From IMG/VR virus record IMGVR_UViG_2850808358_000014: 48,456 nucleotides of DNA. One strand, 5' to 3'. A program made the position numbers and the translations under genes. This document shows positions 2,675-48,456 of this stretch, in pieces; positions within the stretch are counted from its first letter, which is position 1, and every line of letters begins with the position of its first letter. Source of the stretch: a virus. Lineage: Duplodnaviria > Heunggongvirae > Uroviricota > Caudoviricetes. A model generated the notes under the pieces. The model was not told the DNA's origin. It saw only the letters and a program-made list of their open reading frames with translations, and did no database searches.

Positions 2675-2749
2675 TGTTCACCTCGCCCAAAAATCTCCCC
2701 TCATGCGTTTTAAACATGCATCTTGCGAACAACTTTATGAAACGCGGCA

Positions 2750-2850
2750 TATATGTCCGGTTTGAGTGTTCAATTTTTGCGCATGTCCGGTTCGCAGAAA
2801 GCGCATTTCTATATTTTTCAAATGGTTAACCTTCAGAGAAACCGGACATG
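2750..2850 (-). promoter_or_regulatory. promoter/operator region upstream of the HTH gene with three ATGTCCGGTT repeats
   Basis: Two direct copies and one inverted copy between the terminator at about 2940 and the gene start at 2674. Confidence 0.4.
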
Positions 2851-2932
2851 GTTTCCGAAAAATTTTCATAAATAGTGAAATTCTGCGCCGCTCCCGCCCC
2901 GTGGCAGGCCACCCCACCGGAAGGACCCGCAA

Positions 2933-2962
2933 AAAAAAGCCGGATTTCTCCGGCCTTTTCTC
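2933..2962 (-). terminator. rho-independent terminator after the 137-aa gene
   Basis: On the minus strand, GCCGGA-loop-TCCGGC hairpin followed by a run of 8 U. Confidence 0.6.
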
Positions 2963-3374
2963 AGATGGTTTTCAGTATGCGATCGATTTCGCCGTCATCA
3001 CCCTGATATCTGCCATCGTATGCCATGCCAGGGCTTACGGCCTGCGGGCTGTGCATGTCCATAAAGTTTTCAAAGGCTGCGGTAAGCTCCGGCGCAACCT
3101 TCGGGCGTTCCTGCTCTATGGTCATGTTCAGGATTTCCCGGGCATTATCGACGCTAATACATGGCACGTTTGCCATTGCACGTAACAGCGGCTGATAGTC
3201 GTCAGATTCATGAAGCGCCATAATCGCATCAGTGCGCGGCTTGTCCTGCTCTTCCAGTTTGTTAAGTTGATATATAGCCTCGTAGGTTGATAAACCTCTG
3301 TCCGCCATTGCCCGCGCTTCGGCTTTAAATTTACTCGCCAGCGGTAGCGCCATGATAGCTTCATTGATTGCCAT
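2961..3374 (-). CDS. hypothetical protein, 137 aa, last gene of the capsid operon
   Basis: Intact ORF directly downstream of the gpD-like gene and followed by a terminator; no family recognised. Confidence 0.6.
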   Translation of the reverse strand: MAINEAIMALPLASKFKAEARAMADRGLSTYEAIYQLNKLEEQDKPRTDAIMALHESDDYQPLLRAMANVPCISVDNAREILNMTIEQERPKVAPELTAAFENFMDMHSPQAVSPGMAYDGRYQGDDGEIDRILKTI

Positions 3375-3386
3375 CGTTCCCCCTGC

Positions 3387-3676
3387 TTATCGCACCAGTG
3401 GCTGAACGGATACGCCAGAACCCGCAAAAGCGGCGCATTTTTTCGCGTCGGTGTCGACGCTCTCGGGCCAGTTAACGGCGGCGATATTAAATATCCCCGT
3501 CTTGTAACACTGTGCTGATTTCTGCTTTGACGTGTCCACGGGTACGCCGTCAGATAAACAGCCTTGCCAGATTCCTGACCATCCCACGCCTTAAACTCGC
3601 CATTGTCCGCCAGCATCAGCGGAAAAATGTACCAGCGTCGTGGCAACCTGCTGTGTGCCTGCATATAACTCAACAT
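3387..3676 (-). pseudogene. lambda gpD-like head decoration protein, frameshifted
   Basis: Two overlapping ORF fragments; joined they read ...EFKAWDGQESGKAVYLTAYP|VDTSKQ...KKCAAFAGSGVSV, which resembles the lambda gpD core (KLVAWDG...KKRTAFAGTAISIV); the break is at a C run near 3541. Confidence 0.6.
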
Positions 3677-3700
3677 ATGGAGTGCCCATAGAATCTCCCG

Positions 3701-4756
3701 TTAACCAATTTTCACAGTAACAAATTTGCGGATATCTGCCGGAACCGGCTGCGGTGCGCTGTGCGTCTGCACGTACTCAATCGCCGGATCGCCGCTCTCA
3801 ATCCAGTTTTTCGGGTAGTACATGTTTTGCGTTGCGCCCGTTCTTACCGCTTCCGGATCCATAATCGCGCCATAGGCCACCAGACCTTTATTGCTGGTGT
3901 TGCCCAGGACAAGCAAATCAGGCTCAAGGAAATATTTTTCGGTGCCGTCGCTGTCGGTGTATTTGCCGGAATAGACGATAAGGGCCAGATCACCCAGATA
4001 GCCTTTAAAGCTCACCACTTCGCCCAGGTTTTTACACGCCAGCTCTGCGGCGGATTCTGAACCACGGGAAAGATCGTACAGCTCGCGGAATTTTTTAAAG
4101 CTACGTAAGGTGCGCCATACGTCAGCGCCCATAATCATGACGTTGGCGGGGCAGCTGGCCTGTTCGGCGTATAGCTCGATGTCATCTGTCGGATCATGCG
4201 TCTCTTTATTCTGCTCAGACCATTTTTTTCCTGGCCCCTGATGGACAATGCAGTTTGCCGGCATATTCCAGTCGATTTCATAGCGTTCTATGCCTTCGCC
4301 TTCAATGATGTTTTTTCCGGTCGTGACCGCATTCACTGCCAGCCATTCCACACGCGCTTTAATGGCGTTTATCTGGCGGCGCATGTTGCCAGTAATGAGG
4401 CGCATACGTCGCCAGGTGGGGTCGTTAAGCAGTGCCGGATCTTCTCCAGCCATGCGCATGATGGTTTTTGATGGATCGATTTCGTGTTTGGGTTTCATGT
4501 AGCCAGGGCGGATAGTGCTTGTTTCGTACCCTTTATCACGCTGAACCTGGCTACCCACCACAGGCGAACAAAACGCCGACATGGTGACTTCTTCAATGTC
4601 CAGGGTATCCAGCATGACATCTTGTGTGTTGAAGGTTGCTACTTTCGGGAAAAACAGCGTGGTAAACAGCGGACTGAATTTAAATTCCGGGATATCCCCG
4701 CGATTCAGGTACGCGAAAAGCTGGTTAGTGTTAAGTGCCGTTGCTTTGTCTGCCAT
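3701..4756 (-). CDS. lambda gpE-like major capsid protein, 351 aa
   Basis: Collinear similarity to lambda E as recalled (PGYMKPKHE, DPTDDIE, KGYLGD, YPKNW motifs) and near-identical length. Confidence 0.85.
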   Translation of the reverse strand: MADKATALNTNQLFAYLNRGDIPEFKFSPLFTTLFFPKVATFNTQDVMLDTLDIEEVTMSAFCSPVVGSQVQRDKGYETSTIRPGYMKPKHEIDPSKTIMRMAGEDPALLNDPTWRRMRLITGNMRRQINAIKARVEWLAVNAVTTGKNIIEGEGIERYEIDWNMPANCIVHQGPGKKWSEQNKETHDPTDDIELYAEQASCPANVMIMGADVWRTLRSFKKFRELYDLSRGSESAAELACKNLGEVVSFKGYLGDLALIVYSGKYTDSDGTEKYFLEPDLLVLGNTSNKGLVAYGAIMDPEAVRTGATQNMYYPKNWIESGDPAIEYVQTHSAPQPVPADIRKFVTVKIG

Positions 4757-4962
4757 TATTCACCCTCATGAGTCTGATTCATGCCAAGCGCCGCACGTAA
4801 ATAGGCGCGTACCTGCCAGCCTGTTGACGGCTCAACCATCGCCAGCGGATCAAGTCCTGCCGCAATGCCCGCTTTTACGTTCTGCTGGTGGCGTTCCTTG
4901 AGCGCCTCCACGATATCGGGGCTTATGTAAACTGTCACCCCGCCTTTTTTCTCTTCTGTCAT
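4756..4962 (-). CDS. hypothetical protein, 68 aa, translationally coupled to the capsid gene
   Basis: Its stop overlaps the capsid ATG (TAATG); no family recognised. Confidence 0.5.
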   Translation of the reverse strand: MTEEKKGGVTVYISPDIVEALKERHQQNVKAGIAAGLDPLAMVEPSTGWQVRAYLRAALGMNQTHEGE

Positions 4963-4991
4963 AGTCAGAAATTCCTTTTCGACTTAAAAAA

Positions 4992-5019
4992 TTATAACTG
5001 GATGTACATCCAGTTATAA
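4992..5019. promoter_or_regulatory. perfect ~27-bp palindrome TTATAACTGGATGTACATCCAGTTATAA upstream of the capsid operon
   Basis: Perfect dyad with a CTGG-N8-CCAG core about 30 bp upstream of the 68-aa gene; candidate operator. Confidence 0.45.
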
Positions 5020-5139
5020 TTATAATCATAGTTGCATTTTGTGCAATAGAATTGAGTTGCATTGCAAATTATGAAATGATTTACGGCAACAGTAGTCACC
5101 ATGCTGTTAACCTCGTAAGCAAAAGCCCGATAAGCTTCC

Positions 5140-5196
5140 TCCTGTACTTATCGGGCTTTTTTTGGGTACAAAAAGCCGGATTTTCTCCGGCCTGTG
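5140..5196. terminator. pair of hairpin plus T-run terminators (bidirectional)
   Basis: CCCGATAAG...CTTATCGGG followed by T7 on plus; GCCGGA-TTTTC-TCCGGC followed by U-run on minus, almost identical to the hairpin near 2940. Confidence 0.5.
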
Positions 5197-5199
5197 CGT

Positions 5200-5610
5200 T
5201 CAGAACGGAATATCATCACCGTAGGGGTCATCGTCTCCCGCTGGTGGCTGATTACCCTGTGTGCCTGTGGTTTTGCGTCTGTTCCCGCCAGGGCGTGCCG
5301 CTCGGGCACTGATTACGCTGTCGGCAATAACCTGATAACCCTGCCGCGTTTCCCCGTTCTGTCCGGTCCACTGGCTGACCTGCATCGTGCCGGATACGCT
5401 GGCAACGTCGCCTTTTTGATGTTTAGCCAGGAAGTCGGCCTGCTTACCAAATGCCATCACCGATAGCCATAACGTCGCCTGTCCGTCCTGTGCCTGGCTG
5501 CATGGCAGCGATACCGCCATACGCGCCAGCGTCATCGGTGTGCCCTTGCTGGTCTGTTTTACCTGCGGGTCGTCCACCAACCGTCCGTAAGCTGCTATCT
5601 GTGCTGTCAT
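5200..5610 (-). CDS. ssb: single-stranded DNA-binding protein (short phage/plasmid type)
   Basis: OB-fold-like N-terminus, Gly/Gln-rich linker and acidic C-terminal tail ending DDDPYGDDIPF. Confidence 0.85.
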   Translation of the reverse strand: MTAQIAAYGRLVDDPQVKQTSKGTPMTLARMAVSLPCSQAQDGQATLWLSVMAFGKQADFLAKHQKGDVASVSGTMQVSQWTGQNGETRQGYQVIADSVISARAARPGGNRRKTTGTQGNQPPAGDDDPYGDDIPF

Positions 5611-6163: not shown

Positions 6164-7917
6164 TTATAAAAACGCGTCGCACTCGTCTGTTGTTATTGCG
6201 TTAGTCTGCGTTACCCCCTTAACTTTCCGCGTAATATATTCATGTCCGTAAACTTTTGCGGCAGGCTTCATAGCCTTGCCAAAGTCATTTACGTTTAGCG
6301 GTTTGCTCCTGCCTGCGTATGCCATAAACGCCAGATAGACGCGGTAAAGGCTGTTCCTGGTCGTGTACTTCACTGAATCACCACCGCCACCCATCATCAG
6401 GCCGCGCGCTTCCTCCAGAAAATTCAGGAACTGGCAAAACTCAATAACCGGATCCGTCTGTTGCTTTATTGCCAGTGCTTCATCACCGTCACGCTGTTCC
6501 AGTAGTAAAGCCCGTGCCTTCTCAGGGTCGGTAAAGTTCGCCAGCAATCGGCGGATAATAACGGGGATTTCAGCCGCAATCTTTTCCGGTAGCTCCCTGT
6601 CTTTTTCGGCCTCACTGACGATATTGTCGAAACGGAAAATCACGCGACGACGTGCCACACCTCCGGCCCGTTCGGTGAATATCATCGGGTTGTTGTCGGT
6701 CGCCAGCACCACCGCCCTGATTACCGCCGTGAAACGCTTTTCATATTTCGGGTTAATTTCCACGGGTCGCCGCCCGTGATTTTCTTGATGCCCGTTCCTT
6801 CGCCTGTATATTTCGGCTGGTCAGCCAGGACGATAAGACGACTCCCGACAACCTGCGCACGTCCACCAGCATCATCAAGCGATGTCATTTCAGCGCTTAC
6901 CGTGTTCTGTTTCCCTGCCAGAAGGCTGGCTATGTGTGTGAATGTACTTTTACCGCTCCCGCCGTCTCCGGTGGCCTCAATAAACATCTGCCAGTCGTAC
7001 CGGTTCGCCATAATCATGTAAAGCGCGGCACATATGCGCATCATCTTGCGCGGGTCTTTTCCGGCTGCGTGATCAAGCCATTTATGAAAGTTTGGCGCGT
7101 TGTCGCGGATATTCTCCCCTGGTGCTGGTGGCGTGTACTCAATGCCGTTGTGCGTGGTGATCCAGTTCTCCGGCGTGTGCGGGGAAAATTCCCCCGTTTT
7201 CAGGTTAAGCACACCATTAGTGAACGGTAGCAAATCACTGGACGGCTCGCCCATCGGGTCAGCAATAACTTTTAACGCTTCAACGGCGTTATTAATTGCC
7301 CGCTTGCTGAATGTGGCCCCGTGTTCTGAATAAACCGCCACCATTTCGCGGCTCAGTTCCATTGTGCTGACCGGACACCATATCCCGCCGCGCCATACGT
7401 GAACGATTTCACTTTCCGGATGCACACAAACGCCATCAAATCGACCAGCAAGCATCTGTGCGCGCTCACTGTCTGCCATCTGCGAAAGTTGCGCCTTTTG
7501 CTTTACCGGAAGCTCAATGACCAGACCATCAGAAAGATTCTGGCGTTCACGGGCCAGATATTCGCGCCAGTTCTGCACCTCCTGGCCGTGCATACCCTCA
7601 AGATAAAAATTTGCATCCTGTACACCTGCCGCCGCCAGCTTCTGACCAATCGCCTTGATCATTACAGGCTCAAGATGTCCGGCTCTGTATATGCGTGCTG
7701 ATTTTCTGCCATCCGGCACAATTTGCAGATTATCCAGTTCGGATAGCTGCTGCTCTCCAAGCCACACAGGAGGCTCATTATCTCCGGCTGTACGCGCGTC
7801 ATGTTCCTGCCACTGTTTCGCGTGTGCCCAGGCATCACTACCCGCAAAGATAATTACCTCTGTGTCTTTGTGTTTTATTCCGCGTGGCTGTTTTTTTACG
7901 TTCGGTGCCAGTTTCAT
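6164..7917 (-). pseudogene. P4-family primase/helicase, frameshifted
   Basis: 398-aa fragment with toprim-like N-terminus and Walker A GDGGSGKST, plus a 199-aa fragment in another frame; the join ...ITGGDP|VEINPKYEK falls at a G/C run near 6765. Confidence 0.75.
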
Positions 7918-47065: not shown

Positions 47066-47228
47066 AGGTTTCCCCCTGGCGAATACGGGCGACAAAAATC
47101 AGATGTGCGTGCGGCAGCTGCGCGCGGGCTTCGCGTTCAGTGGCTGCGGTAACGGTGAATATTGCAATGCTGTCTGTCAGGCACTGCATAAAGCGCCAGA
47201 CAAAGTAAGGGCGTGCGGATACAGCCAT
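47055..47228 (-). CDS. small protein, tandem paralog A (possibly Icd-like)
   Basis: 57 aa with WRF and TEREAR...FVARIRQG motifs; SD AAGGAG-N9-ATG. Confidence 0.5.
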   Translation of the reverse strand: MAVSARPYFVWRFMQCLTDSIAIFTVTAATEREARAQLPHAHLIFVARIRQGETYAQ

Positions 47229-47522
47229 GTGAAAGGCTCCTTTGCTTGATGTAAGGAGTCTCGCCAGCACGCTGTCAAACATGGTGGCGGGACGTAACAG
47301 GGTTGACAGACTGGCAGCAAAGAAACCAGCGAGCGCAAAGGCTCCCCCGTTACGCCCCGCCATAATGCGGGTATGGGTAGGTTTACGGACACAAAAAAAC
47401 CGCATATCGGAATGTAAGCGGCTGTCCGCTTTGCTATTCAGGCTGTCAAACCCGGTCGCCATGTGGGCGACGGGGGAAGAATACAGCCCCACGGTAATTT
47501 TTTGCAAGTTGTTTTTACGCAT
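47229..47522 (-). CDS. hypothetical protein reading in frame into paralog A (no stop as given)
   Basis: Start overlaps the paralog B stop (ATGCGTAA); may be a separate gene merged by a frame error. Confidence 0.4.
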
Positions 47523-47703
47523 GGCCAACCCCCTGACGAATACGGGCCGCGAATACAGCAACACAACCGGACGGGCAATGGTTACGCGCTTCGCGTTCAG
47601 TCCAGGCGGTGACGTGGATGATTTGGGACTCTGACGCACCAAAGGCGATAAAGCGCCAGAGAAAGGCGGTTTGAGAATGTACAAGGGTAGGGGTAGTAGC
47701 CAT
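47515..47703 (-). CDS. small protein, tandem paralog B (possibly Icd-like)
   Basis: 62 aa with WRF and TEREAR...FAARIRQG motifs; same SD spacing as paralog A. Confidence 0.5.
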   Translation of the reverse strand: MATTPTLVHSQTAFLWRFIAFGASESQIIHVTAWTEREARNHCPSGCVAVFAARIRQGVGHA

Positions 47704-47795
47704 GTCGGCAGCCTCCTTGATTGATGGAATGTAACCACCGCCGGAGGTCCTAAGCTCGCTGGCGGTGGACTGTACAGGGTTAGGACTACTGGCAA

Positions 47796-48053
47796 TCAAG
47801 GGAACCAGCCTACCCGAAGGTAGCCCCATACAGCCCACCATTGTATAGGTGTGCGTGTGCGTCGATACAAAAAAGACGCGTGCGGCGTCTGTATCGCCTC
47901 GATTGTCAGCGGGGTCCTAATCCCGGCACCCGTTTTATAAGGTGCACGCGAATCATAGCCTTGGCTGGCAGTGGCGATCAACTGGTTTTTCATACCCGCT
48001 TTATTCAGGTTGTGCGAGTCCCGCCCTTGCAGGTGTGTGGTATGATTTAACAT
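47796..48053 (-). CDS. hypothetical protein, 85 aa, first gene of the leftward operon
   Basis: Internal Met of a longer tracked ORF; lies just downstream of the operator region. Confidence 0.5.
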   Translation of the reverse strand: MLNHTTHLQGRDSHNLNKAGMKNQLIATASQGYDSRAPYKTGAGIRTPLTIEAIQTPHASFLYRRTRTPIQWWAVWGYLRVGWFP

Positions 48054-48054
48054 A

Positions 48055-48258
48055 GCTACCTCGATACTGTTGCTATCGTTGGTGGTTAGACGCCCTGCAT
48101 GTGTTGCGAGCACTGCGGGGCGTTGCTTAATTTGAGTGACAAAACTCAAACTGTGCGCACAGATTAAAATCATGTGTGCGCACATGTCAATACTTAACAT
48201 CTCATTTTTTTTGCTGTATTGTGTGCGCCCATAAAGTCCATTTAAGTGAGGTGCATCA
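48055..48258. promoter_or_regulatory. divergent promoter/operator region with TGTGCGCACA palindromes
   Basis: CTGTGCGCACAG, CATGTGTGCGCACATG and a half-site TGTGTGCGC between the divergent genes. Confidence 0.5.
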
Positions 48259-48456
48259 ATGTCTAGCGGTAACACAAACAACAAATCAGCAAAGAAAAAT
48301 ATTCGATTCCCACATGAGCTTATAGATGGGGTTTATGCCAGCGTTGAACAAGAAAAATTAACTAATCCTAGTGCTAATTTTTCCGCATGGGTCTTAGATG
48401 CCTGTGGACGCAAATTAAAATATGAACAGCGCAGGAAGGCCAAAGAATCAGAATAA
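48259..48456 (+). CDS. small putative DNA-binding regulator, 65 aa
   Basis: Basic N-terminus; divergent from the operon across the palindromic operators; no family confidently recognised. Confidence 0.5.
   Translation: MSSGNTNNKSAKKNIRFPHELIDGVYASVEQEKLTNPSANFSAWVLDACGRKLKYEQRRKAKESE

Follow-up and report, generated by a model that had tools for sequence, protein, structure and literature searches.

The IMG/VR contig IMGVR_UViG_2850808358_000014, a stretch of 48,456 nucleotides (nt) that we refer to throughout as the window, carries an element that, by its gene order and protein similarities, is a decayed phage-inducible chromosomal island (PICI) of the EcCICFT073 type, EcCICFT073 being the model Gram-negative cos PICI (Fillol-Salom et al., 2018, PMC6092414; 2019, PMC6739421). 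Its genes are, in order, a D5/P4-type primase, a 92-aa gene, ssb, a 68-aa gene, a gpE-like capsid gene, a gpD-like decoration gene and a 137-aa gene. The EcCICFT073 proteins find collinear matches in the window at 66–99% identity (tblastn), and the word 'satellite', applied to this DNA in an earlier sequence-only reading, was well chosen. A GC-rich hairpin followed by a U-run closes two gene modules of this E. coli phage satellite, namely the capsid module, which ends with the 137-aa gene (site 1), and the replication module, which ends with ssb (site 2). We regard both hairpins as, most probably, Rho-independent terminators of the minus strand that are reused at mosaic module junctions.

Hairpins downstream of ssb and the 137-aa gene

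The features on which the argument is built are the following.

2939..2954, minus strand: site-1 stem-loop, GCCGGATTTCTCCGGC on the plus strand (GCCGGA-TTTC-TCCGGC); sense RNA GCCGGA-GAAA-UCCGGC
2931..2938, minus strand: U8 tract of site 1, A8 on the plus strand, ending 2 nt before the cosQ core GGGTCC
2961..3374, minus strand: 137-aa gene, final gene of the capsid module (phrog_1999)
5175..5191, minus strand: site-2 stem-loop, GCCGGATTTTCTCCGGC on the plus strand (GCCGGA-TTTTC-TCCGGC); sense RNA GCCGGA-GAAAA-UCCGGC
5170..5174, minus strand: U5 tract of site 2, A5 on the plus strand
5121..5156, minus strand: second tandem hairpin (5125-5156), GCCCGAUAAG-N12-CUUAUCGGGC and then UUUUG, 12 nt 3' of site 2
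5200..5610, minus strand: ssb, final gene of the replication module (Pfam SSB, 4.8e-17), C-terminus DDIPF, 99% identical to the ssb of EcCICFT073

All genes around both hairpins are encoded on the minus strand, and the U-runs therefore correspond to A8 (2931-2938) and A5 (5170-5174) of the plus strand. In sense order, site 1 reads ...ILKTI (stop) GAGAAAAG GCCGGA GAAA TCCGGC TTTTTTTT GC GGGTCC... and site 2 reads ...DDIPF (stop) ACGCACAG GCCGGA GAAAA TCCGGC TTTTT GTACCC..., with the stop of the 137-aa open reading frame (ORF; 3374->2961) 6 nt before the first hairpin and that of ssb (5610->5200) 8 nt before the second. The sequence-only reading had placed a hairpin after each of these two genes and a U-run after each hairpin, and both statements are correct, the runs being U8 and U5 on the minus, coding strand. 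Its description of the same hairpin occurring twice applies to the stem, which is identical at the two sites (6 bp, or 7 bp at site 1 when G2955/U2938 is counted), and not to the hairpin as a whole: the loops, TTTC and TTTTC on the plus strand, are 4 and 5 nt long and differ by one base, and the exact 16-mer is consequently found only once, even with 2 mismatches allowed.

In intrinsic termination, a GC-rich stem of 6–8 bp forms in the nascent RNA while a U-tract fills the RNA:DNA hybrid, upon which the elongation complex is destabilized and the RNA released. The anatomy of the two sites and its direction on the sense strand can be read directly from the DNA, and we find no structural difference from the intrinsic terminators of E. 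coli and its phages: the stem is GC-rich and 6–8 bp long, the U-tract comprises 5–8 residues, the structure lies a few nt past a stop codon, most hairpin copies have a GNRA-type tetraloop (GAAA, GCAA or GTAA), the hairpins at site 2 stand in tandem, and an upstream A-tract leads to partial symmetry. The only peculiarity is the reuse of one stem at several junctions of one mobile element.

RNAfold gave -21.7 kcal/mol for the site-1 region (2925-2975, minus strand; z = -4.1) and -14.2 kcal/mol for the site-2 region in sense (z = -2.2; centroid -13.1 kcal/mol), while the antisense folds lay near their shuffles (z = -1.2 at site 1 and -1.5 at site 2); the isolated hairpins have energies of -10.4 (site 1) and -10.3 (site 2) kcal/mol. 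A d'Aubenton-Carafa-type d-score (after d'Aubenton-Carafa et al., 1990) was +51 at site 1 and +29 at site 2 in sense and did not exceed 0 in antisense. The hairpin that begins 12 nt past site 2 folded at -22.3 kcal/mol (z = -4.4; d-score +9), and the replication operon therefore ends in two tandem terminator-like structures. Neither this tandem arrangement nor the position of site 1 at the junction with a cos packaging site had been recorded in the sequence-only reading.

Termination in vivo and its efficiency are what we infer from this anatomy. Site 2 and the second hairpin would end the early replication operon (primase ... ssb), and site 1 would end a capsid operon that comprises the 68-aa gene, the genes of the major capsid and decoration proteins and the 137-aa gene, and that is probably transcribed from a separate promoter located between the two hairpins. 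The hairpin pair at site 2 would insulate the two operons from each other, and site 1 would stop transcripts 2 nt before cosQ. For E. coli phage satellites of this widespread family, transcription could then be mapped: tandem terminators would close the early replication operon, and a strong terminator bordering cos would close the capsid operon, which has a separate promoter of its own. Such a map could be of use for annotation and for the engineering of PICI-based delivery vehicles, and it indicates the sites of module exchange in the family. No concept is changed by it; terminator reuse at the module junctions of mobile elements is expected, and the present case is an ordinary instance in a known satellite family.

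Conservation and module exchange in the satellite family

The family set consisted of 80 IMG/VR contigs with a capsid protein at least 87% identical to that of the window, to which three E. coli chromosomal copies (EcCICFT073 among them) and the window's own copy were added; many of the surveyed loci are closely related to one another. A second scan of viral contigs with the most divergent capsid protein returned nearly the same contigs and added only two new loci. With T marking the hairpin and the numbered genes named by the length of their products (p92 for the 92-aa gene, and so on), the common map is p92 - ssb - (perC) - T - (cosQ-cosN) - promoter - p68 - capsid - decoration - p137 - T - cosQ-cosN - (rppA) - (inverted cos) - p93.

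Conservation of both hairpins across this family is a direct observation. At site 1, GCCGGA-GAAA-TCCGGC with T6-8, starting 5–6 nt past the stop, is present in all 72 loci that cover the site. A hairpin and T-run precede the capsid operon at site 2 in 81 of 81 loci, with the exact stem in 76 of the 81 and with GAAAA, GCAA, GAAG, GTAA or GAAA as its loop, and every one of the 176 hairpin instances in the family has a T-run of at least 4. Three of the five site-2 variants (L043, L063 and L069) carry a single change that produces a G.U or U.G wobble; L083, and also the extra locus L208, shows a compensatory change of the closing pair from A-U to G-C together with a new loop; and L068 combines an A-U to G-C swap with a single position left unpaired. 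One stem is seen with six different loops, and over nine distinct variants 98% of cells are paired, as compared with 20–54% when the partners are slid, a pattern suggestive of structural conservation of the stem. The second tandem hairpin is present in most relatives and is swapped for a different hairpin in L083, L208 and L068, a replacement that fits with function being kept while sequence turns over.

Some observations weigh against the hairpins being terminators. Covariation is thin, in that three of the six pairs never vary, two changes yield wobbles and only one pair is changed on both sides, and this among closely related loci. The U-tract of site 2 has only five U, followed by GUA. Our literature searches found no transcript 3'-end data for the window element, EcCICFT073 or PICIs. 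Terminator prediction at the two sites, which the sequence-only reading had suggested as a check, came out divided: RNAfold and the d-score favour a terminator in sense at both, whereas a consensus terminator scanner called neither on the sense strand and flagged only site 1, on the plus strand. The miss is likely attributable to greedy stem extension that swallows the U-tract.

Mosaicism at the junctions is likewise seen directly. The genes 5' of the hairpin vary by member and include an ssb ending in DDIPF, an ssb ending in GDNIPF, several perC alleles and other small genes, and one subgroup has three hairpin copies (perC-T, 74-aa ORF-T and p137-T). Nucleotide identities of ssb, the junction segment and p68 to the window fall into discrete allele classes that are freely combined, with values of 94/94/76% in L011, 96/81/92% in L002 and 78/85/93% in L001. 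This mixing of alleles is the pattern of mosaic modules bordered by putative terminators, and the hairpins part units that recombine independently. The sequence-only reading had spoken of modular operon boundaries, a view that is upheld by the terminator anatomy in sense past the stops, the recurrence of the same junctions throughout the family and the independent recombination of the flanks.

Morons are reportedly cassettes of promoter, gene and terminator, and the literature of Hendrix/Juhala and Clark is also said to deal with module-boundary sequences of lambdoid phages. The accessory genes of the satellites (perC and the 74-aa ORF), each with its own terminator copy, resemble such morons, and short conserved sequences at mosaic junctions recall the module boundaries of lambdoid phages. 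The differences are that separate promoters have been demonstrated for none of the satellite cassettes, and that the host element is a satellite and not a phage.

Independent assortment of the ssb, junction-segment and 68-aa-gene alleles across the surveyed loci, with the same hairpin joined to different upstream genes, is also what would be expected if the hairpin were mainly a short conserved recombination 'linker' for module swaps and termination were incidental. We find this hardly credible: 16–24 nt are very short for RecA-dependent exchange, breakpoints are also found off the hairpin, e.g. between the promoter segment and the 68-aa gene, and neither the sense orientation nor the U-tract nor the kept pairing is needed for recombination. 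A linker function would, moreover, be compatible with that of a terminator rather than exclusive of it.

If the hairpins are terminators, the same stem would recur because every transcription unit or gene cassette is closed by a copy of a common junction element, consisting of the terminator, joined in some members to cosQ-cosN, which would have been duplicated and exchanged by recombination. We favour duplication over independent origin for the two copies in the window, foremost because in L001-type relatives a unit of hairpin, cosQ and cosN (~75 nt) follows both ssb and p137, a repeat extension that is plainly observed and constitutes the best evidence, and further because a separate hairpin copy accompanies each extra gene cassette. 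The same two observations lend support to the 'duplicated terminator' of the sequence-only reading.

Within the window, the likeness between the two sites spans only ~23 nt, AGGCCGGAGAAA(A)TCCGGCTTTTT, and so short a stretch could also have arisen by convergence, that is, by two independent generic terminators coming to share one 6-bp stem without duplication. At least 120 contigs from unrelated bacteria, among them Bacteroidota, Bacillota and various Proteobacteria, contain the sequence GCCGGAGNAATCCGGCTTTTT, where ~1 would be expected by chance (an estimate from 20 fixed bases and ~1.2e12 positions); it is therefore a generic, recurrently evolved terminator sequence, and identity of the two window copies alone would therefore not prove duplication. 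Convergence nevertheless appears improbable to us. GCCGGA-N3-7-TCCGGC has 2 matches in the window against 0.02 expected, a number reached in 0 of 100 shuffles, and GCCGGA-N4/5-TCCGGC is found nowhere in the 48,456-nt window beyond 2939-2954 and 5175-5191. There is no further copy in ~140 kb of neighbouring non-satellite DNA, including the ~37 kb of a Mu prophage and ~100 kb of flanking E. coli chromosome (L001, L002, L085 and L086). The same stem stands at two or three junctions in essentially every member, in mosaic contexts, and the L001-type repeat reaches ~60 nt further, into cosQ and cosN. A hairpin-like GCCGGAGAAGATCCGGC in the capsid gene of L025 (3213) and L072 (6307), where the window has GCTGGAGAAGATCCGGC (window 4430-4450), was discarded as a chance coding match, as it codes for ...MAGEDPA... 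and has no T-run.

Other identities for the hairpin were considered. Repetitive extragenic palindromes (REP) and the bacterial interspersed mosaic elements (BIME) that they form have as their consensus an imperfect palindrome of roughly 35 nt that starts with GCCGGAT... and ends with ...ATCCGGC. The satellite hairpin resembles them in these two ends and in its extragenic position past genes, and differs in being a perfect structure of 16–17 nt with a tetraloop and U-tract that forms no clusters and is absent from the flanking chromosome; a REP element was rejected, the hairpin being too short, without the consensus and without other copies. A replication origin was likewise rejected, since the published ori of EcCICFT073 lies just 3' of pri-rep (primase), upstream of ssb, and at neither hairpin. 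Rfam returned chance-level matches only (E of at least 0.38, far under gathering scores) and no family for the hairpin, a phage collection searched with the site-2 region gave no match, and no description of these hairpins was found in our literature searches.

The cos packaging site adjoining site 1

Directly 3' of site 1 lies a cos site, with the following parts.

2735..2930, minus strand: lambda-like cos site, aligned with lambda and with EcCICFT073 cos1 and cos2
2923-2928, minus strand: cosQ core GGGTCC, 2 nt past the U-tract
2888-2899, minus strand: cosN-like 12-mer GGGCGGGAGCGG, from the cos alignment
2855-2877, minus strand: I1-like CACTATTTATGAAAATTTTT, from the cos alignment
2840-2849, 2783-2792 and 2753-2762, minus strand: three ATGTCCGGTT/AACCGGACAT repeats of the cos site

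EcCICFT073 was published with two cos sites, and according to the sequences in the supplement (Fig. S5a, PMC6092414) cos1 starts inside the T-run of the site-1 hairpin, while cos2 is an inverted copy before the 93-aa gene. Neither lambda nor PhiR12_1, read directly, has a hairpin 5' of cosQ, and in the other lambdoid phages among the matches listed the cos homology stops at cosQ, before the hairpin. The inverted cos copies of the family, EcCICFT073 cos2 included, are without the hairpin as well, and many hairpin copies, window site 2 among them, have no adjoining cos. Because of its absence from phage cos and inverted cos, and because so many copies stand without cos, the idea that the hairpin is part of cos was rejected; rather, it would mark the point where an operon native to the satellite finishes and a cos cassette of phage origin begins.

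The same evidence bears on the proposal that the inverted repeat acts as double-stranded DNA, i.e. as a protein-binding palindrome of the packaging site, be it an extension of cosQ, a site for terminase or an accessory factor, or an insulator that holds RNA polymerase away from cos. In 72 of 72 relatives, only 2 nt separate site 1 and the cosQ core; in some, the copy at site 2 likewise adjoins cosQ-cosN; and the stem is nearly invariant, as a protein site would lead one to expect. Apart from the phage cos sites, inverted copies and cos-less hairpins described above, which speak against it, every copy shares the orientation of its upstream gene and has a T-run, and the variants are G.U wobbles, which keep an RNA helix and not a DNA palindrome. 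The published cos sequences, moreover, start in the T-run, past the stem-loop, and plasmids into which the cos sites had been cloned were transferable (PMC6092414 supplement). We therefore judge a role in double-stranded DNA to be very unlikely and prefer to regard the hairpins as terminators.

It is conceivable, though on balance we doubt it, that terminator, cosQ and cosN make up one portable cassette, its U-tract leading straight into cosQ, that was copied to the junctions after ssb and after the capsid operon, and that the terminator has a packaging-related role. Such a role might, for example, be to clear RNA polymerase from cos and so permit the assembly of terminase or Rpp-TerS, and it would account for the absolute conservation of site 1. 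The cosQ-cosN spacer at window site 1 is closer to that of L001 site 2 than to that of L001 site 1, which suggests exchange between the two positions.

Several further observations concern cos itself. A third cos-like unit, consisting of cosQ and the cosN-like GGGCGGGAGCGG without a recognizable cosB, follows the ssb terminator in L001 (14580-14800), L008-L010, L023, L028 and others, and some loci keep cosQ alone at site 2. Over 179 nt, EcCICFT073 cos2 (L086 14100-14345) matches the cos of phage PhiR12_1 (L277) at 93% identity, and the 'divergent PICI cosB' of cos2 would, on this likeness, be a captured phage cosB. In both the window cos (2600-2935) and EcCICFT073 cos2, the cosB is that of a genuine lambdoid phage, and the window copy runs into the first ~25 codons of the PhiR12_1 Nu1/terS gene (2674-2600; MATQTEVARHLSLTDRQLRRLQKL, ORF start 2674). 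The rppA gene of EcCICFT073 lies between two cos copies that are inverted relative to each other (L086 13520-14345). The cosB-bearing segment is found in either orientation relative to the capsid genes among members, and in the window it is direct (2735-2935) and rppA is gone, which suggests inversion or rearrangement between inverted cos repeats.

The capsid operon, decay of the element and nested insertions

Between the two hairpins, the capsid operon and its predicted promoter are laid out as follows.

3387..4962, minus strand: body of the capsid operon between the hairpins, three genes
4962-4756, minus strand: 68-aa gene
4756-3701, minus strand: gene for a lambda-E-like major capsid protein
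3692-3387, minus strand: gpD-like decoration gene, disrupted
4990..5024, minus strand: predicted capsid-operon promoter region, with a -10 TATAAT (5024->5019) and, overlapping it, a 32-nt palindrome whose core is CTG-N10-CAG

The palindrome, AATTATAACTGGATGTACATCCAGTTATAATT, is perfect, and its CTG-N10-CAG core is LexA-box-like but has CTGG in place of CTGT; most relatives retain the palindrome, whereas L068 and L083 lack it. The 137-aa protein (phrog_1999, function unknown) shows a weak match to the C-terminal part of a head maturation protease (phrog_53, E = 1e-9). In lambda, the C-terminal region of this protease presumably corresponds to the nested Nu3 scaffold, and the 137-aa protein may, by this analogy, be a scaffold-like protein of the satellite capsid module.

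In overall layout the window element follows EcCICFT073, which has the same order of primase, small gene, ssb, 68-aa gene, c1499 (the E-like capsid protein), c1500 (the D-like decoration protein), 137-aa gene, cos and 93-aa gene, and the same two hairpins, at L086 11232 and 13504. It differs in lacking perC and the rpp gene (rppA, for redirecting phage packaging, had no match in the window by tblastn of the EcCICFT073 proteins) and in having one cos only, which sits where cos1 does in EcCICFT073 and whose cosB is of the cos2/phage type. The site-2 hairpin lies 3' of perC in EcCICFT073 and 3' of ssb in the window.

A further difference from EcCICFT073 is that the window element has decayed, with a decoration pseudogene, a frameshifted primase and insertions of an insertion sequence (IS) and of Mu. 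The decoration gene (3387-3692) is broken by a frameshift and a stop, and the primase gene is split by a frameshift (6754-6775); because of these two lesions the window copy of the satellite is probably non-functional. Islands of this type have integrase and alpA at their left end and are induced by a helper; the window stops at 48456, inside the early region, with homologues of icd and YlcI at 47073-48453. A complete Mu prophage, whose left and right ends are both exactly canonical, occupies 8888-45830 in reverse orientation and is inserted in an IS110-family transposase gene (8686-8887 and 45831 to ~46855). The IS in turn sits in the early operon of the satellite, between homologues (window 8452-8222 and 47065-46856) of the EcCICFT073 genes L086 7707-7940 and L086 7270-7491, respectively, giving a nesting of three levels in which the satellite contains the IS and the IS contains Mu.

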